Shown here in pieces: positions 3,875 through 64,000 of a stretch of DNA of 64,000 nucleotides. A program made the position numbers and the translations under genes. Where the stretch lies: NCBI GenBank assembly GCA_000934665.2, contig KZ538002.1, forward strand, positions 124,001-188,000, given 5' to 3'. Below the pieces are notes generated by a model. That model had not been told where the DNA came from, made no database searches, and was given only the letters and a program-made list of their open reading frames with translations. Each line of letters begins with the position of its first letter. Position 1 is the first letter of the stretch. This DNA is from Catajapyx aquilonaris. Lineage: Eukaryota.

Positions 3875-3978
3875 ACTATATCGCTCAAAAACATAGAGGC
3901 GATTTTGCATTTGACTCAAGTGCATCCTGCACTTGAATCAAATGCAAAAATCGTCTCTATGTTTTTGAGCGATATAGT
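3875..3978. repeat. 104-bp near-perfect palindrome (about 50-bp stem, 3-nt loop), probably MITE-derived
   Basis: actatatcgctcaaaaacatagag...aagtgca TCC tgcactt...ctctatgtttttgagcgatatagt; 2 mismatches and 1 indel. Confidence 0.9.
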
Positions 3979-4464: not shown

Positions 4465-4738
4465 GGGGCCGTCCATAATCCGCGCGGACAGATTTTTTCA
4501 CTTTTTTACCCCCCCCCCCCCTNNNNNNNNNNNNNNNNNNNNNNNNNNNNNNNNNNNNNNNNNNNNNNNNNNNNNNNNNNNNNNNNNNNNNNNNNNNNNN
4601 NNNNNNNNNNNNNNATTTGACGTTTATTGTCCGCGCGTACAACTGACTTCTACCCCCACCCCCCTGTACGGACAAAAGCGGACAAAGTGCAACCCCCCTC
4701 CCCCCCTTCACTTGTCCGCGCGGATTATGGACGGCCCC
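4465..4738. mobile_element. MITE with 26-bp perfect TIRs and 3-bp TSD (PIF/Harbinger-like)
   Basis: ACA|ggggccgtccataatccgcgcggaca ... tgtccgcgcggattatggacggcccc|ACA. The interior contains an N gap. Confidence 0.85.
4523..4614. other. Assembly gap (92 N)
   Basis: N run next to a poly-C tract inside the MITE. Other Ns (16703, 40897, 43911, 61436-61441) sit in G homopolymers. Confidence 1.

Positions 4739-9904: not shown

Positions 9905-9947
<43 letters not shown>
9905..9947. repeat. (CA)n microsatellite
   Basis: Direct reading. Confidence 0.99.
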
Positions 9948-15507: not shown

Positions 15508-15590
15508 ACTTACCGTGTGGGTGTGCATATTTGCAGGAAATTCATAAGTAGTCGGGACTCACCTGAAAAGAGAGAAAATAATTGTTAAGA
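15508..15590 (-). promoter_or_regulatory. Recursive splice site (ratchet point) with 49-nt cryptic RS exon (15562-15514)
   Basis: The minus strand reads TCTTAAC (branch-like) AATTA TTTTCTCTCTTTTCAG|GTGAGT ...49 nt... CACG|GTAAGT. It is on the same strand as ds and inside the giant intron. Confidence 0.75.
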
Positions 15591-24148: not shown

Positions 24149-25259
24149 CCCTGACCAACAATTATTTTGTTACATGAACAACTTTAGCTGTTTCCTACGT
24201 ATTATTAGACGTTGATTCCGAATATGAGGTCAGGAATTATCCATCACCTTCCATTTTTCTGTAACAGACCTACCTTATTTTGCAGAAAATATACTGCACT
24301 TTGATCATTGTCACTAATATATTGGTTAAAATGGCATTGTTACATGAGCAATTTTTGCTGTTTGTCATGCATTCATAGGCGCTGATTCCGAATATGAAGT
24401 CAGAAAAATTCTATCAGCCTTCATTTTCTTGTAAAAAAAACCTACTTCTCAGAACTTTGCATAACTCAATGTCACCAATATATTGGTCAACAATGGCTTT
24501 GATAAATGCACAATTTTTGCTGTCTTCTATGGATTAGTAGGCCTTGATTTTGGACATAAAATCAGAAAGTTTCTATCGGCATCCGTTTTCTTGTAACAGA
24601 CCTTACTTCCCCGAGAGTAGGCCCTACTTTGCATAGCTCAATATGACCAGTTTATTGGTCAACAATAGCTTTGTTACATGAACAATTGTAGCTGTTTCTT
24701 ATGCATTAATAGGCTCTGGTTTTGAATATGAAGTCAGAATTTTTTTTATCAGGATCGATTTTCTTGTAACAAGCCTACCTTTTGTACTGCACATTACAAC
24801 ACCTTATGCATACTATTTAAAATAATATGCTTCCATATGACGATTTCGGCTTTTCTACTGCTACCACAATATGGGTAACATAGGTAATCCATTAATTAAG
24901 CCCTGTTAGTCATTACCTACTTATATGAAAGTGTAGCCGATGACATTGTTACCATAAAACTGCCGATTAGTCAAAAATTCTGAGTGATAGAAAATATAAG
25001 TTTACATAATCGATATCAGCGCAGATAATACAATAGGAATCGCATATTCATGTATATGTAACAAAAAGCAGTTCAATTTTGTCGATCAGTGAGTTACATA
25101 TTAAGGGAGGTTTTTCGCTCCCATAAAAATGCTCATTAGGCAAAAACTGTAGGTGATAGGAAGAATCGGTTACCATATTTGAAATCAGCACAAAAGACAC
25201 AATAAGAATCTCATATTCACGTACGTGTAACAAAAAAGGGTCAATTTTGTCGATCAGTG
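24149..25259. mobile_element. Chapaev3 (CMC)-like non-autonomous DNA transposon with internal ~170-bp tandem repeats
   Basis: TTA|ccctgaccaacaa...ttttgttacatg ... gtgtaacaaaa...ttttgtcgatcagtg|TTA. Four diverged units start near 24169, 24339, 24501 and 24673 (gattccgaatatga motif), and the right terminal region is duplicated (about 25040-25091 and 25205-25259). Confidence 0.7.
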
Positions 25260-26379: not shown

Positions 26380-27140
26380 AAGTGTGTCCCCTTAAATCGG
26401 AGGCCCAAACACCGTTAGTTCTAACTCGAATGAACTCCGTCTTGTACAGGATGTCCATAAAATGCGTGTGATATGATGGCGCCATATTTTGGAAGGAGGG
26501 ATCAATACACCCTGTCCTCTGCAACTTGGCTAGAAGTTGTTATCAGTGTCCCATTTGACAGGCTCCCCATGGCGCTTAACTGCCTACAAGCCAAATCTTG
26601 ATCTGTTCCTTTCTCCATCGGTTGAAGGAAATGCGTCCATTTCAGAATCATCATGTACAGTGTGGCGAATATGGTCAGTGACATGTCGGATGAAATTGAC
26701 GTTGAATAGTATGCCCCCACCCTTTCATGGGCAAGTGGACATGCAGATTCAGGTTTTCCCCCTTCCTCTTTATTGAATCGGAGGGGCGCAACCAGTGGAC
26801 AGATTCATGCACTTGTTGAGGATCTTGTGGTCCGGATTGGCGGCTCAATCTCTGGCGGCGACCGAGCGAGGCAGCGACCGGTCAAGTGGCCTGGACGGCC
26901 TTTCCCCCAGGCCACTCTCTTCTTCTTCTTCTTCTTCTTCTTCTTCTTCTTCTTCTTCTTCTTCCACAGCCTGCTTTGCTTTTTGTTCCTCCTTCTCTTT
27001 CCTTATGCCCCTTTTTGTTTCCTCAGAGTGCCTTGGCTGACACCCCCAACTGCTCAACCACCACTGGGCCAGCAGCCATGTTGGGCAGCAGGTGTTATTT
27101 TGGAGGTTGCAGGACACTGGTTCACTGCATGCCACATGTG
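26380..27140 (-). mobile_element. Decayed 5' end (UTR + ORF1) of an I-group LINE
   Basis: FLQPMEKGTDQDL...LSNGTLITTSSQ...PVQDGVHSS resembles Nimb/I ORF1 (FLV...LRNGTLLVET...PVxxxPHxSLN). Interrupted by (CTT)n. Confidence 0.4.
26918..26964. repeat. (CTT)n microsatellite
   Basis: Direct reading. Confidence 0.99.
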
Positions 27141-33618: not shown

Positions 33619-34291
33619 TCTATCTCCACCTCATCTCCCAGACTGACCTCAATACCCACATACACATTTGCAAACACGCCCTGAGAAGGGCTTTTTCGCA
33701 TGCGGAAACTGTCAGGTGTGTACCCGCCCAATTAAGGTGGCTCCCGATCAATCGCTTCTGATGCATTGGGAGGAAGTCATCTGATCCAGAGACCCAACCT
33801 TAAAGGATTGTCTGGAGGACCTCATAAGACGGTTATTAGCATGTATGAAGAAGGAGGGAAAAAACCAGGAGTAAGGGGGGCTTCCGATTGATACCTTGAG
33901 TCGTGATTAATTACAGCAAAACGGAGGGCTTGCGGGAAACAAATCAAAGTCAAAGTGTGGATGTTTATCGGGTTGTCAGGAGGCATTTTCCACAAGGTAG
34001 TGCTTCGGTGTGTTTTTTTTTTATGAATGCACCTGCTGATGGAGGTGGCCTTCTCTTATTTCCGTGCTTTTTCACGCTTAATTACAGATTGTTTTGGATC
34101 ACGCTTGTTATTATGGTAATGTGCGATTATAGGGGATGATTTCTCATTTTACGTTCACTGAACATTTGGGTAGTTATTGTTATTTTATAGCGCATATCCG
34201 GTTCTGAATAACGGCGTTGGGTATTTAATTACGCTACAAATATTAATATAAACATAAAATCAGAATGCTTCTCGAAGTACCGGTACATATA

Positions 34292-34501
34292 CAGGGTGTT
34301 TCAATTTTTTGTCAGAACAGTTATCGGAAATATTGCACTAAGCTGCTACTTTGTAAGCAGTGTATGCCACTTCAACCTAAGATTCGCAGGGAATATTCCC
34401 CATACCTCCAACAAACCGGTTGCAAGTCACTGCTTACAAAGTAGCAGCTTATAGTGCAATATTTCCCATAACTGTTCGGACAAAAAAGTTGAAACACCAT
34501 G
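34292..34501. mobile_element. Tc1/mariner-type palindromic MITE (about 72-bp arms), TA TSD
   Basis: TA|cagggtgtttcaa...gctgctactttgtaagcagtg ... cactgcttacaaagtagcagc...ttgaaacaccatg|TA. Confidence 0.9.
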
Positions 34502-35118
34502 TACTTATATGACCTTCATCCCACTGAACACTCACTGAGAGAAACGATGAATCATAAGTAAGATAGTGTTGTCCCTCATAACTGACACACATTTGTACTC
34601 AACATTTCGTTATCTGATATTATTACCATTAGATAAATATTAATGCAGATATTAATTCGAGTTGATATGTAAAAATAGATCTTATTATGCATGCCACATA
34701 CTCGGCGGGTAAAAATTTTTTGGCACAGAAAGGTCACTCGACTACTCTAAAGGCCTCCAAATGGAAGAGTTAATGTCAGATAAGTATGACAGGTACGCTG
34801 TGTCCGGCGGTTATTGATTGTTTACAGCCTGTAGAAATGCGCCACCTTGTTAATGATTGACGTCTGGATGCTTTCAGATACGGCCTACCGCGGATTTCGA
34901 TCAAGGTACCTACATACAACCTAAATGTTGGCAAAGAATCAATTCATCCGGTACGACTGACCACACCCAATTCTGACGCAATATTTGGCAAATTATTTGG
35001 GAAAAAAACATGGCCCCCATTCCTAACCTCCAGTTTCTTCAAAATAAAAAATGGCAATTGTAGGGGGCACCCGGTGCGAAGGATTTTTCTGCCCACTTTT
35101 ATCAATAACAGCATCAAT

Positions 35119-41200: not shown

Positions 41201-41417
41201 CAGATTGGACAACGTGCAATTTTCAGCCTGATTTTTTCTCTTCTTCACTAATAACTTTGGATCTTGAGTCAACATGCCAGGTATTTTAGGGTGCTGAGCA
41301 TATGGGCTACCTCTGATTGTTCAAATAGGGCTTATGAGGCCATAAATTTGGGCCATATTAGGCTGGAAACACATGGTAGTCAACACATGCACACAAGAAA
41401 GGTGTTAAGATGCCTAC

Positions 41418-43193
41418 CTTGAGGATGCAGTGTCCTATCTCCTCGTTTTCGGCCACGGTCACGTTGTAGAAGCTCTGGTCGAAAATGGGCTCGTTGTCAT
41501 TGACGTCGCGGATGGTGACGGTGACGGTGACCGAGGCGGCCAGGGGCGGATTGCCATTGTCCGTGGCTACCACAGTCAACTGCGGCATGGGATCTGTCTC
41601 GCAGTCGATGTGAGCACGTGTGGTGATGAGCCCGGTCCTGCGGTCAATCTGAAACCATTCCGAGTGTGTTTCAGGTGTGTCGCGGATGGCGTAGGTGACC
41701 ACGGAGTTGTTGCCGTCGTCCCGGTCTACAGCCGACACTTTGAATACCGACGTGCCCGGATCGGCCACCTCCAACACGTTAGCGTAGTACACGGTCTTCT
41801 CGAACTCGGGAGCGTTGTCGTTGACGTCCATCACGTGCAGGTAGAACGTCTTGGACGTGTTCAGTGGTGGACTACCTTGGTCTGTGGCTATCACGCTCAG
41901 GGTGTAATTCGGACGCAGTTCCCTGTCTAAAGGTTGCGACACTATCACCAGGTATATGATATTGTCGCGCGTTGTGAGTCCAAAGTGGCCGTCGCCTCCT
42001 TCCAGAGTGACATTGACGTTGGCGTACTCCTCTTTAGAATCGGGGTCGTGCACGCTGATCCTGGCCACAAACTCACCCGGTTTGGCATTCTCGGATATTT
42101 TGGGGGTGGCATCGTCGCTGAGGAATATCAACCTGATCACCGGCTGGTTGTCATTGACGTCGGTGACGCGGATCGAGACGAACGCGGTTGTTTCCAGGGG
42201 TTGTGCGCTGTTGTCACGAGCGACTACCACTAGTTCGTGTACCTCCTTGGTTTCAAAGTCCAATGCACGGTTAACTGAGATGACACCTGTCGTCGGGTCT
42301 ATCCGAAACATGCTGTCCTTGTCGCTTTGACGCCTGTTGATGGAATAAGTGACGGCACCGTTCTCGCCAGAGTCGGTGTCTGTGGCGAACACCTGCAGCA
42401 CGCTGGTGCCGACGGTGGTATTTTCAGTCACGGTGGCAAAGTACCGACTTTGGTTAAATATGGGCTGGTTGTCATTGACGTCTTGTATGGTTATGTTCAC
42501 TCGGATGGACCCTTTGAGTGGAGGCGTGCCACCGTCGAATGCCTCAATGACTAAACTGTACGACGGGGTCGTTTCCCGGTCCAGGAAACCATTCACCTGC
42601 AGGTCGAGATACAACACACCATCTCTTTCCCTGTGCGAAGACAACCTGAACGCATTGTTGATGTTCCCACTCGCGATGCTATACCTCTGAGTGTTGTACA
42701 CACCCAGGTCCAAGTCCCTGGCAGGATACAATGTCCGTTTCACATCCCTAGGAGTGTTTTCCGGGAACTCGATGGTCATCACCGGGGAAGGAAACGTCGG
42801 CGCATTGTCGTTCTCGTCCCTGACCTGTATCACCACTCGGATGTTCTCACCACTGAGCGGTATAGCCACCAGGGAGTAGGAACTCCTCATTTCTCGATCC
42901 GGCACAATCCTGGTACGGATCTCGCCCGTGGACTGATCAATGTGGAGGTCCGAGTCCACTGCGCTGCCGGGCACAGGGACAATCAAATATGGAGGCGGAG
43001 GAGGGCCCGGAGGACCAGGCCGATCCTCGCCGATGAACCCGATCCGGGTTCCCGCCGGGACCCCTTCGGACACCTCGAACTCCCGGATGTATTCGGCGGC
43101 GATGAGACGGACTGCTAAGAAGGACGCCAAGAGGCCCACCATCAGGGGACCGGCTGTCATCTTCAGAGTACAGCTCCTAGCTACCCGGCTCAT
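41418..43193 (-). CDS. ds: Dachsous protocadherin, first large coding exon (signal peptide + cadherin repeats EC1-EC5 + start of EC6; about 592 codons)
   Basis: The ORF has a hydrophobic N-terminus (LMVGLLASFLAVRLIAA) and five DxND-terminated cadherin repeats with PE/DRE/DxD motifs. Segments such as AFRLSSHRERDGVLYLDLQ, QPLETTAFVSIRVTDVNDNQP and HIDCETDPMPQL match arthropod Ds as I recall it. The exon ends ...CILK (AAG)|GTAGGC at 41418/41417; the last 19 aa of the listed ORF are intron read-through. An in-frame TAG lies 7 codons upstream of the ATG. The true start could be a downstream Met (43160 or 43142). Confidence 0.95.
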
Positions 43194-43219
43194 CTGTAGT
43201 CCCTTTGGGCACTAATTGG

Positions 43220-43291: not shown

Positions 43292-43300
43292 GCACAGTTT

Positions 43301-43320
43301 CTGAAATGGACACAAATGGT
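43301..43320 (-). promoter_or_regulatory. Probable 3' splice acceptor of the first ds coding exon (exon would start at 43300)
   Basis: Minus strand ACCATTTGTGTCCATTTCAG|AAACTG, 107 nt upstream of the ATG. Confidence 0.6.

Positions 43321-43452: not shown

Positions 43453-43539
<87 letters not shown>
43453..43539. repeat. (TAA)29 microsatellite
   Basis: Direct reading. Confidence 0.99.

Positions 43540-46421: not shown

Positions 46422-46480
<59 letters not shown>
46422..46480. repeat. (TAT)n microsatellite
   Basis: Direct reading. Confidence 0.99.
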
Positions 46481-47600
46481 GGAAAGGAATTTTCGACATT
46501 TTCAGGTTAAGCCGCGTAGGCTTCTAAATTTAAAAATAAAATACATCCCCTTTAGCGCATTGTAGGTATAAGGTACTAGGAAAAGTTCAGTAATTACGTA
46601 TAAAATGACCCGGTTAACAAAATACTTGACAAGTCCAGCACACAAAATCGGCCATATTGACCACATTGTAAACACTGTAAGAAGAGAGCATTGTGCACAT
46701 ACAATAAAGCAAGAAGTATTCTTCTATTTTGCCCTTACAATGCTTAGCACTTTTCACATGAAAATATACGGTACCGGCACTTATCTAAATTTTCACACGA
46801 TCTGTATACAGCAAAACTGCCAGCTTTGGTGAAACAAACTAAACACCATGTGAGCTACTGCTAGTACTAAAATTTCAAATATTCTAACCAAGACCTAACT
46901 TTCCAAGCTAAAAATGCAAGACAAACTATACACGCCACATAAGAGTTGTTATAATATAAATGTGCAGGCCTCTCTCCTAAATATATAAGTTAAATTACAT
47001 TTAGATTAATATTAGCACCGATTGCACCACAGTCATAAGACAGGATGTGAAAGTACATTACATTAGTTCACGAAAGGGCACGTGCTCTGCAGGTATAATA
47101 GATTAAGTAAAGATTCCAAGCTGAATCATTTGCATATGTAAATTTACAGTACCGTAATCTTTTCAAGGTAGAAATTTATATATTTTCCCGTCAATTTTAT
47201 GACGGAAAGTAATAAAAGTTGATTGCAGAGTGAGATGATCTGTATCGCTATAAAAATGAAGGGAGTGATTTCCCATGTGCACCCAGCTGTACTGTATATA
47301 CAATATGTATTACGTGATGTATTTCACACATTGACTACATCATATCACACCAAATTACTTAATGAAACTACACACGTGATCGGCAAGAAAAAAATATATA
47401 CCAAAGAAAAATCCTGGCTGGAATCAGCCTGGAATTTGGGTGGTGTTGACCTCCCCCCTAAATGACCTCTGGAAAAACTTAAGGAAAAACAAGTGGCGGG
47501 GTCTAGAACGAGTGACGGCGGAGGGGGGGCAAACGGGCGGTGGGGGAACCCAACCCCAAGGATGGCCAGGGCCTGAGTTCTCTTTCTCACCTGAGCTTAC

Positions 47601-47950
47601 CTGTGAAGGGAGTCGATGGCCGCTGAAGCCACCCCAAACACACACCTGCGCGATTTCCCCACCCAACACTCGCACACTGGTTCAACCAGAAAACCAATCC
47701 AGCAATACAAACACACACTCCCACACTGCACTGCCCCACACACAACAATCCAGAGTGAGGTTAATTGTTGGCGTGTCCCAAGAATCAATGGCTGAATGGG
47801 CTTGGTAGACCAAGACCTTACGAAGGTCTGGCTGACACTGGTCTTCAAGGGCTCACTACTCGCTTCCCGCCGCCACCACCCTTCCCCCCTCCCTTCCCCC
47901 CTCCCTGCTCCAGGGAGAGATCACGTGGGCTCCAGCTCAACCAATCACAC
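47601..47950 (-). promoter_or_regulatory. Candidate ds non-coding 5' exon and proximal promoter
   Basis: Strong donor CACAG|GTAAGC at 47601/47600 and a second CAG|GTGAGA 10 nt on. The exon-like sequence is GTG-rich. Upstream are G-tracts (47879-47905), CACGTG (47922) and CCAAT (47941). The TSS cannot be determined. Confidence 0.4.
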
Positions 47951-49770: not shown

Positions 49771-49810
49771 GCACGCGTACTCACACACATCCGTGGCGGT
49801 GAAGCTAATA

Positions 49811-50371
49811 CAGGATGTTTCAGAGTCACGGGTCAAGCGCGCGCGAGAGGGTGGGGAAAATCGTAGGTAGTGGCAACCCCGGTCGGTTTTATAAAACAAT
49901 TAGAAATACGTAAGTAATCCATTTATTTATTACGGCCGTACGGCGTGACGTCACATCCTTTCTGTTCGAATTGACTGGCGCGGACTGGCCGATGCAGTAG
50001 TGGGTTGAACCTGGTTGAGCGGCTTTTTAGCCTTGCGGGTTGCACTGAAAAAGGCGCTCTCATGCTTATACCGGTAGGGTACTGTACACACTACTGTACA
50101 GTACCCTACCGGTATAAGCATGAGATCGCCTTTTTCAGTGCAACCCGCAAGGCTAAAAAGCCGTTCAACCAGGTTCAACCCACTGCACGTCTGCCAGTCC
50201 GCGCCAGTCAATTCGAACAGAAAGGATGTGACGTCACGCCGTACTGCAGTAACAAATAAATTGATTACTGCCGTATTTCTAATTGTTTTATAAAACCGAC
50301 CGGGGTTGCCACTACCTACGATTTTCCCCACCCTCTCGCGCGCGCTTGACCCGTGACGCTGAAGCACCCTC
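49811..50371. mobile_element. 561-bp foldback MITE (Tc1/mariner-like termini), TA TSD
   Basis: Arms 49811-50088 and 50095-50371 are near-perfectly complementary around a 6-nt loop (cactac). TA|caggatgtttcag ... ctgaagcaccctc|TA. Confidence 0.95.
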
Positions 50372-50382
50372 TATAAAGCGTG

Positions 50383-50406
50383 TACTACTACTACTACTAC
50401 TAATAC

Positions 50407-50454
<48 letters not shown>
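50383..50454. repeat. Compound (TAC)n(TAA)n microsatellite
   Basis: Direct reading. Confidence 0.98.
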
Positions 50455-54090: not shown

Positions 54091-54243
54091 CAGTAAAACT
54101 TCTATAGGTTGAATCTCCGTTGGGACCGGAAAAAACTTCGAGTTATAGAAGATTCGAGTTAGAGAAGTTTGGAATTTTTAAACACATAACTCTATAACTG
54201 AGGAAGCCTACCTTTATATCCAGCGACGAAAGTTGTTCAAAAG
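54091..54243 (+). mobile_element. pogo-like MITE terminal fragment
   Basis: TA|cagtaaaacttctata...gggaccggaaaaaacttcgagttatagaagattcgagttagag. 54134-54242 is the diverged reverse complement of 63895-64000. Confidence 0.75.
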
Positions 54244-54505
54244 TTGTGTCGGGAACACAAGCCGCAGCTTTTGACGTGAATACGTCTTTAAAATCGGATC
54301 AGTATTGGGGGAGTGAATTGATTGCTTATTATCAGTATTGAAGTCTGGATACATGCAGCACGGTAATCCTAAAGTCTGGACACATTCATGGTGACCCTAA
54401 AGTCTGGACACTCATGGTGACCCTCCTAAGAATATCCCTGCATGCCCCCCTGCATGCCCCCGCCATGGGTCCCATGGCAGGGTCCTGACTATAACACTCA
54501 CACGC

Positions 54506-54729
54506 CACTTAGGATATAGTAGACTCGGATATAATAGCCTGTAACGCTTTTCTGTAACGCGCGAGTTTGCCTCCATGCCCCCTATGCGGATCCGAATTTA
54601 GCCACTCCGGATATAGTAGACTCGGTTATAATAGACTCGGATATAGTAGACTGTAACGCTTTTCTGTAACGCTCGAGTTTGCCTCCATGCCCCCTATGTT
54701 GATCCGAATTTAGCCACTCCGGATATAGT
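54506..54729. repeat. 112-bp tandem duplication with 15-bp actcggatatagtag subrepeats
   Basis: ctgtaacgcttttctgtaacgc...gccactccggatatagt at 54539 and 54651. Confidence 0.9.
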
Positions 54730-54986: not shown

Positions 54987-55334
54987 GGCCTTTAATTTGT
55001 TTCAACTTCTTCGGCATCAGTGTAAGAACCCCTGTCGAGGAGTGTTTCTATATATACAGGGTGTTTCCGAGCTATCTTTACAAACTTCTATAGGGATAAT
55101 AGAGGGGACCAAGACAAACATATTTCATATAGGAACTCCTGTCCGGAAACGCCATCTAGAGGGGGTTCATAGACAAGGAACGGGTGTGCTCAGTCGCATT
55201 TCCGGACACTGGTTCCTATATAAAATATGTTTGTCTTGGTCCCCTCTATTACCCCTAGAAGTTTGTAAAGATAGCTCGGAAACACCCTGTGGTTCTTACT
55301 CTGATGCCGAAGAAATTGAAACAAATTAAAGGCC
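54987..55334. mobile_element. Outer inverted-repeat element (44-bp arms) enclosing a MITE
   Basis: ggcctttaatttgtttcaacttcttcggcatcagtgtaagaacc (54987-55030) / ggttcttactctgatgccgaagaaattgaaacaaattaaaggcc (55291-55334). Confidence 0.85.
55057..55289. mobile_element. Tc1/mariner-type palindromic MITE (about 92-bp arms)
   Basis: TA|cagggtgtttccgagctatctttacaaacttcta ... tagaagtttgtaaagatagctcggaaacaccctg|TG. Confidence 0.9.
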
Positions 55335-60330: not shown

Positions 60331-61885
60331 GGGGAGTAACCCCTATCGGCAGAGGCCTAGTGACAATGTATTGATTGTTATACCAATTTGGGAAATATAT
60401 CATTTTAAAATTCCAAGTTATCTCTTTCATTCATCAGCACTCACTTCAGTGTTCCTCGCTTTGCACGGATGTTTGCAAATAAGTGACAAAGTTGCTCTTT
60501 GGAAACGGGAACATTCAAACTTATCACGTGCACTAACCCATAACAATATGGGGTGAGGAGTATCCTCCTCTTTCATATCCAGGCCAGCAGCATCTCAGCC
60601 AGCACCAGCAGTTTACGCCTTGCGTCTGTCGCAGTCTGTTGGAGGCTGGTTGGAGGTCAATATTAGCTAAGGGACATATTGAGTTACGGCTCTGAAAGGT
60701 GTACTTCTAGTGTTCCAATCCTATAGTTTATTTCCTGAATTTGGCGAGTGTCTCTTTACACCTATAGACTAATGTCGCGACATTTCATCGTAGATTTTAC
60801 ATGATAATTTCTCTGTGAAATATTACCGTTACGAGTGATTTTAAACTTTTAAGATTGTTAAACCTTCATTGCCTTCATTCTTATTACAGTAAAATGGCAT
60901 ATAGGGATAGGCCACATAGACCTTCACAATATGGGAAGAAAATTACCATCTCATAATTCGTGGGTCTATTACATTGTACTTCCACAAAGGCAATTAACAA
61001 TTAAATATAATAGTTATGACTGTACATTAGTAGTCTATAGGCCTACTGCAATAAAATACCGTATACGACTTTGATTTTTATATTTTATTTAATATTTAGG
61101 ATTTTTATGAATAGGATAATTATAGAGTTTCGCTGCACAAAGTAATAAAAAAGCTCGTAGTTGAGCAAATTTTTCCAAGGTTTTATCACTGAATTTTTAA
61201 TAATATATGTTGAGTTGCCAATTTTATTATGCAGTTTGTTCCAAGCAGCTCTATGCAACTCCTTTGATATGGTAGGGTACTTAGACTGTTGGAGAGTCTC
61301 CGCCACAGCGGATTTGGCGCTGCAGGCGCTCAATGAGGCCCCAGGGGCACTCGGGCGGTTGGCGGGCGAATCTGCAGACGGAGGCTGAGGACATAAAAGG
61401 AGCATGCAGCGATGTTGTGCGGTGAGTCGGGGGGGNNNNNNGGGCTCTGCAGTGGTTTGAGTTTGGATTTAATAGTTCAGAACGGTTCAGAAGGCGACAA
61501 GGCGTCCGCCCGAGACCCCGAGTGAGTCTGGGTCCCTCTCGGGCGCCGCCAGCGCCAATTCCAGGCTGGCGGAGACAGATACCGTCACGATACGGCTAGG
61601 CTGGGAGTTGCGGGGGCTGGTTCCAAGTATGCGTGTATAGTTTTTAGCTATCGCTAATATGACCTAAAGAGGTGATTTTTGTGTCTTGTTGCTCCCCGAT
61701 CCAGGTGCACTATTTTCTAGCAACTGGCCGTTTGTAATACATGACCATCTGGAAATAATTGGGCACCTGGATAGGGGCACAACAAACTACACAAAAATAA
61801 TTAGCCTACTTCGGACAATATTAGGCCTATCGATAACTAAAAACGACCCTGACACTTGGAACACACTGTATTTTATACTCTACAT

Positions 61886-63464: not shown

Positions 63465-64000
63465 TAAAAAAACTTCCATAAGTCGAACTTCCCTAAGTCG
63501 AAGTTCTCTATAAGTCGAAGAAAATGATGAGCTTGGTTGGTCACAATGTAAAATAATAAGAAATACACTTCCCTAACTCGAAGTTCTCCATAACTCCAAG
63601 TGGAGGCAGGGCCTTACGATGCATTTTCAGTCTCCCTAAGTCGAAGTTCATGTTGGCGAGTACGGAAAATTGTCTCATTTCCCAGCCGAAGGGTCGAGAG
63701 TACAGGCCACAGAAAGGCTCTTTCCTGATCTCCGTATATCTAAAGAAGTGTCTGACTCGAATGTGACAATTGCATCTTTTATTAAGAGTGAGAGCCGATC
63801 TAAGAGTAGACAAAATAATGTCCATAACGGAGTTTTTTTTTACAACAAAACAACGAGGAACATTGTAAGTGTGATAGTGATAGTTATTTTTAAGTTTTGA
63901 ACACCTTTTGTCGCTGGATATAAAGGTAGGCTTCCTTATAGAGTTCTGTGCTTTAAAAAAGCCAAACTTCTCTAACTCGAATCTTCTATAACTCGAAGTT
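63465..64000. mobile_element. pogo-like MITE running off the right edge
   Basis: Repeated ctaagtcgaag/ctaactcgaag subterminal motifs at 63468-63650 and 63965-64000. The right part is homologous (inverted) to 54134-54242. Confidence 0.7.

Follow-up and report, generated by a model that had tools for sequence, protein, structure and literature searches.

The giant intron of dachsous (ds) that follows the coding exon for the N-terminal part of the protein probably harbours a functional recursive splice site, or ratchet point, together with a cryptic RS exon of 49 nt, and the motifs assembled at this site would predict a stepwise removal of this intron. The site is located on the minus strand of the window, by which is meant the entire 64-kb stretch of DNA that was analysed and to which all positions given here refer. 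Both the mechanism and the motif are already known, while the host, a non-dipteran pancrustacean, would be new.

When read directly on the minus strand, the module takes the form TCTTAAC-N8-TTTTCTCTCTTTTCAG|GTGAGT and extends from position 15590 to 15557. Its first element is the branch-point-like TCTTAAC (15584-15590), the penultimate base of which, at 15585 and at -23 relative to the acceptor G, represents the candidate branch A; this motif constitutes weak evidence because it is frequent by chance. The polypyrimidine tract TTTTCTCTCTTTTC follows at 15565-15578 and comprises 14 uninterrupted nucleotides with a T at -5 and at -6, and in the TTTTCAG|GT found at the site itself T occupies -4 to -7. 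The ratchet point proper (15557-15564) consists of the acceptor AG at 15564-15563, which directly abuts the donor GTGAGT at 15562-15557. A second donor, ACG|GTAAGT, is present downstream with its GTAAGT at 15508-15513 and the corresponding exon end at 15514, the distance between the two donors (GTGAGT to GTAAGT) amounting to 49 nt. The predicted cryptic RS exon delimited by these signals (15514-15562, minus strand) has a length that is not a multiple of three and, when the phase of the upstream exon is carried on into it, reads VSPDYL followed by a TGA at 15544-15542, i.e. at the seventh codon.

The candidate ratchet point would divide the intron into a first segment of 25,855 nt (15563-41417, minus strand), which is the predicted first lariat, and a second segment that begins at 15513, runs to position 1 and extends past the edge of the window, beyond which the next ds exon is to be sought. 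The branch-like motif, the tract, the AG|GTGAGT and the ACG|GTAAGT situated 49 nt further on, all of which had been described in the earlier note on this DNA, were each recovered at the positions given there. The site had been placed about 25.9 kb into the intron, which corresponds to the 25,855 nt separating 41417 from 15563, and joining the exon end at 41418 to 15562 yields exactly the AAG|GTGAGT that had been anticipated.

The ds coding exon occupies positions 41418-43160 on the minus strand, within a long open reading frame (41358-43211), and runs from an ATG at 43160 through a signal peptide and cadherin repeats to a terminal CTC AAG in phase 0. The upstream 5' splice site, AAG|GTAGGC (41412-41420, minus strand), places the end of the exon at 41418 and the first base of the intron at 41417, and it coincides with the point at which homology to other Dachsous proteins ends. 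The product of the exon matches Pfam Cadherin in four stretches (E 3.5e-81) and shares 73-81% identity with the N-terminal parts of Dachsous from arthropods (Drosophila 73%, shrimp and krill 79%, cockroach 80%, Artemia 81%) which, along with the signal peptide, bears out the earlier assignment of the host gene to ds. The maximum identity to any database protein was 81%, and a quick, weakly resolved tree placed this Ds beside two springtails (SH-aLRT 94, the threshold being 95) and away from Diptera. These data agree with the previous impression that the animal is not Drosophila, and they point to a non-dipteran pancrustacean as the source.

A tblastn search with four long Ds proteins returned no match in the window outside 41370-43211 and, since no further ds exon is present within positions 1-41417, the intron is at least 41.4 kb in length and continues past the window edge. 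Two in-frame ATGs are present on the minus strand, at 43193 and 43160 (MSRVARSCTLK-MTAGPL...), and the true start of Ds is ambiguous because homology with other Ds proteins begins after the second of these. Further upstream, a good donor ACAG|GTAAGC was observed at 47595-47610 on the minus strand (exon end 47601), as was an acceptor, tccatttcag|aaactg, at 43295-43310 on the same strand, with its AG at 43302-43301, i.e. 140 nt ahead of the ATG; together, these signals suggest that ds has a 5'-UTR intron of 4.3 kb, preceded by a 5' exon that is non-coding.

The position of the long intron was compared across 120 database homologues of similar length, among which a K is aligned with the last codon of the exon in 119, while homology is lost no more than 93 residues past this codon in 118, the other two continuing as cadherin. 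From these counts it would follow that the phase-0 intron position after ...CILK is widely shared. Judging from the same alignments, this position appears often to break gene models, and the short Ds homologues of many arthropods resemble the output of gene prediction or ORF calling that has either run on into this same intron or terminated in it. The unrelated tails past ...CILK begin with V in 113 of the 120 homologues and with VS in 62 of them. In a few RefSeq-named Ds models the tail is not V-initial, a situation that would require a spliced alternative end.

Under the recursive-splicing reading, the module would be recognised by exon definition once approximately 25.9 kb of the intron have been transcribed, with U2AF binding to the 14-nt pyrimidine tract, U2 to TCTTAAC and U1 to the downstream ACG|GTAAGT. 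The exon end at 41418 would then be joined to the AG at 15563, thereby releasing a lariat of 25,855 nt and creating a new junction, AAG|GTGAGT, which would represent a full-consensus donor; the predicted read across this junction is ...CTCAAG followed by GTGAGTCCC. The regenerated donor would subsequently be spliced to the acceptor of the following ds exon, a long way off, the 49-nt unit would be removed with the remaining intron, and the mRNA would retain nothing of the module. If the donor at 15514 were employed instead, the 49 nt would be kept, causing a frameshift and a TGA after six codons, and the resulting product would be unproductive or truncated. An exon of 49 nt that carries a premature termination codon (PTC) between very strong splice sites in an essential patterning gene would presumably be costly unless it is re-spliced, and the GTGAGT at its first base would thereby provide the route for re-splicing.

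The two donors that would compete for this outcome are about equally strong. AAG|GTGAGT matches MAG|GTRAGT at nine of nine positions and ACG|GTAAGT does so at eight of nine; on the exonic side the regenerated AAG is better than the ACG of the RS exon, and for the intronic six bases a crude position weight matrix (PWM) based on generic frequencies returned 9.5 bits for GTAAGT versus 8.7 bits for GTGAGT. In both flies and mammals the donor of the ratchet point is generally stronger than that of the RS exon, and which of the two prevails does not depend on donor strength alone (both according to Joseph 2021). In the candidate, the RS-exon donor is not clearly weaker than the regenerated one. The interpretation of the site as a ratchet point, as put forward in the earlier note, was thus sustained with respect to most of the sequence features known from flies, but it is qualified by the near parity of the donors, because of which exclusive zero-nucleotide use of the site is not assured.

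Some transcripts may thus keep the exon with its stop, and the main rival explanation is that the 49-nt unit acts chiefly as a regulated cassette ('poison') exon which, being retained in a share of ds transcripts, lowers Ds output or yields a truncated N-terminal product, with the GTGAGT being incidental or a minor escape. The acceptor and ACG|GTAAGT are indeed both strong, inclusion would shift the frame and bring in a stop once six codons have been read, and the similar donor strengths make such inclusion plausible; furthermore, Joseph 2021 shows that inclusion of RS exons can occur even where the ratchet-point donor is the stronger. Poison exons (Lareau 2007 and others, as cited in Joseph 2021) resemble the candidate in that they are short, break the reading frame and possess strong splice sites within a conserved gene, but they need no donor at their first base, whereas the first six bases of the candidate are precisely GTGAGT. 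A full GTRAGT at the start of an exon is rare by chance, as this motif occurs at a rate of 4.3e-4 per nt in the intron, and with GTGAGT present re-splicing is mechanistically expected. A role predominantly as a poison exon is consequently considered unlikely, bearing in mind that it overlaps with recursive splicing, since a single RS exon may play both parts.

The rarity of the site was assessed using a simple PWM combining acceptor and donor, the frequencies of which are generic metazoan values that were not trained on the source species. The candidate site scored 16.9, as against 8.1 for the runner-up among the 174 sense-strand AGGT of positions 1-41417 and 8.9 for the best of the 160 AGGT on the antisense strand of the intron, and it ranks first of the 334 AGGT on both intron strands. 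Upstream of the ds exon there are 132 AGGT, of which the highest-scoring, at 11.1, is the above-mentioned donor with its exon end at 47601, the second-best AG|GT in the window. The pattern Y12-N-CAG|GTRAGT, with at most one mismatch, has a single match in the 64 kb on both strands and none in 100 dinucleotide shuffles. Among 1000 first-order Markov simulations of the intron none reached 16.9, the best score per simulation having its median at 9.2 and its 99th percentile at 14.5 and never exceeding 16.3. Among the 2349 AG dinucleotides of the sense intron, that of the candidate site is the sole one to follow at least 14 consecutive pyrimidines. The assertion in the earlier note that this is the only strong AG|GT in the intron, made by eye, is thereby placed on a quantitative footing. 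No second recursive site is evident in the part of the intron contained in the window, the 8.1 of the runner-up being lower than the simulated median maximum.

The AGGTRAGT 8-mer in itself occurs at chance frequency, with four copies in the window versus 3.35 expected, and what exceeds chance is its occurrence together with the tract and the second donor. Stretches of 14 pyrimidines have a frequency of 0.0018 in the window, and a GTRAGT is found 20-100 nt downstream of four of the 174 AGGT (rate-based P 0.035). With the above frequency of 14-pyrimidine stretches, the expected number of chance sites in the intron is approximately 0.002 for the tract with AGGTRAGT, and approximately 7e-5 when the second donor is included.

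These figures bear on a second rival explanation, according to which the elements are a chance juxtaposition that is not meaningfully used by the spliceosome, for example on account of RNA structure, silencers or intron-definition kinetics. This explanation gains from the unremarkable frequency of the 8-mer, from the 47 pyrimidine runs of at least 12 on the site's strand in the whole window, and from the fact that sequence motifs alone support the site; in addition, very many windows were scanned initially and rare coincidences therefore get picked. The joint expectations given above and the failure of all 1000 simulations to attain the score argue against it, as does the location of the site on the sense strand of an intron of more than 41 kb, since fly introns of that class usually have recursive sites (according to Pai 2018, a high-confidence one is present in 63% of those exceeding 40 kb). 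On balance, coincidence is regarded as quite unlikely.

Concerning repeats and nested genes, the 2.1 kb surrounding the candidate site have no other match within the window, and no tandem array was detected at the site. None of the 18 ORFs tested, 12 of which lie around the site within 11-20 kb, produced a Pfam match, and Rfam returned no match at gathering thresholds. Membership of a repeat family or of a nested minus-strand gene, either of which the earlier note had named as grounds for abandoning its proposal, thus found no counterpart in these searches, and a nested gene or mobile element was dropped as an explanation. Long introns of developmental genes often contain internal promoters and lncRNAs. 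The notion that the signals belong to another minus-strand transcript, such that either CAG|GTGAGT would supply the donor for an alternative first exon inside ds or an ncRNA would have the 49-nt unit as one of its exons, is compatible with the content of the window insofar as a non-coding transcript is concerned, but it is very improbable given the Pfam and Rfam results and because under a donor-only role four features, namely the branch motif, the 14-nt tract, the C found at -3 and the donor at +49, would each be a coincidence.

The exact 22-mer of the site was also searched for across metagenome contigs, where it was present at three loci (L001-L003), the match to the window spanning merely 23-25 bases in each case. 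As identity ends after these bases and the loci are unrelated to the ds locus, they were rejected as conserved counterparts. At two of them (L002, 2001-2022, and L003, 1152-1173) the 22-mer has identical surroundings, with more AG and GT signals downstream, and both of these probably represent eukaryotic DNA in the metagenome.

The window contains a number of repeated sequences elsewhere. Matches of the window to its own reverse complement, at 75-93% identity, were found at 49808-50374, 54987-55334, 34290-34503 and 3875-3978, the longest comprising 568 bases at 93%, and by their sequence these stretches would be palindromic or hairpin-like elements. A further inverted pair of 110 bp (63892-64000 versus 54134-54245) shows 90% identity between copies lying nearly 10 kb apart. 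Perfect or near-perfect microsatellites include (TAA)29 at 43453-43539, just upstream of the coding exon, and (TAT)20 at 46422-46480, along with (TAA)18 at 50401-50454, (TCT)16 at 26918-26964 and (CA)21 at 9905-9947. Within the ds intron, at 24156-24781, a unit of 172 bp is repeated in tandem about 2.8 times with 74% identity, and a tandem repeat of 112 bp lies upstream of ds at 54512-54729. Assembly gaps or ambiguous bases occur at 4523-4614 and 61436-61441 and as a single N at each of 16704, 40897 and 43911, leaving the candidate site untouched.

The favoured reading, that of a ratchet point with a cryptic RS exon, can be compared with several known systems, foremost among them Drosophila. 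In the Duff preprint, 196 of the 197 ratchet points of flies have TT at -5/-6, mapped branch points lie mostly between -36 and -21, and the host introns measure 11-133 kb and are divided into segments of 2.6-63.6 kb (mean 18 kb). The candidate shares with these sites the (Y)n-N-CAG|GTRAGT arrangement, the TT at -5/-6 and a branch motif inside the -36 to -21 interval; it too lies in a sense-strand intron of more than 40 kb in a morphogenesis gene, and the length of its first segment, 25.9 kb, is within the fly range. It also resembles the validated fly motifs in the S1 table of Pai 2018, several of which likewise contain GTGAGT. According to Joseph 2021, ratchet points are recognised by way of a cryptic exon that is short, at about 50 nt, and has a separate donor, such RS exons being for the most part out of frame or interrupted by a stop, and the unit described here is similarly about 50 nt in length, out of frame, interrupted by a stop and furnished with a donor of its own. 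Fly sites are further defined by reads that join the exon to the ratchet point, by a saw-tooth in intron coverage, by recursive lariats and by an AG|GT core that is strongly conserved between related species in contrast to the RS-exon body, whereas the candidate is predicted from sequence and resides in a non-fly host.

The microexons mI and mII of Ubx (Hatton 1998, as described in later papers) offer a second parallel, each being a short exon of 51 nt with a donor at its start that can be kept or re-spliced, as envisaged for the candidate. In contrast to the 49-nt unit, the inclusion of which would impose a frameshift and a stop, these microexons are in frame, coding, ultraconserved and represented in isoforms. 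Its 49 nt, frameshift and stop at codon 7 speak against counting the candidate among expressed RS exons such as Ubx mI and mII. Vertebrate RS exons in long genes (Sibley 2015 and Blazquez 2018, as summarised in Joseph 2021) share with the candidate exon definition, donor competition and a PTC upon inclusion; in mammals, however, most RS exons are expressed and the EJC represses the regenerated donor, with no more than a handful of fully suppressed intronic sites known.

Outside flies, the closest arthropod case is that of locust NPF1 (PMC8892266), in which a site was predicted by motif in a 230-kb intron, likewise in a non-dipteran arthropod. The locust site has received indirect support from U2AF65 RNA immunoprecipitation, whereas the ds candidate is a sequence-derived prediction in another gene and context. 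Among the arthropod recursive-splicing literature, as judged by titles, locust NPF1 was the sole non-fly site found. No published recursive site in fly ds was found in a literature search that did not extend to the tables of sites in Duff 2015, Burnette 2005 and Joseph 2018; the one paper to mention both recursive splicing and dachsous does so in its list of references, and four ds identifiers were absent from the five supplementary files of Pai 2018, which concern S2 cells.

Recursive splicing is documented by hundreds of cases in Drosophila and is sparse in vertebrates. The textbook-quality site described here, in the giant intron of a gene of planar polarity and growth, would afford a cheap and precise test of whether the fly mechanism, with its RS-exon logic, is general among arthropods whose introns are large. 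A site in use would mark six bases as a target, the loss of which is expected to inactivate ds through forced inclusion of an exon that carries a stop; an unused site would show how misleading prediction from motifs alone can be. It is conceivable, albeit doubtful, that the ds intron after ...CILK has been removed via a ratchet point since before the fly and non-dipteran lineages split, a suggestion that arises because the intron position appears common to nearly all pancrustacean ds genes (119 of 120 homologues). Should this ancient origin prove true, ds would provide the first recursive site traceable across Pancrustacea, and zero-nucleotide recursive splicing would be a general arthropod answer to giant introns rather than a speciality of Drosophila.
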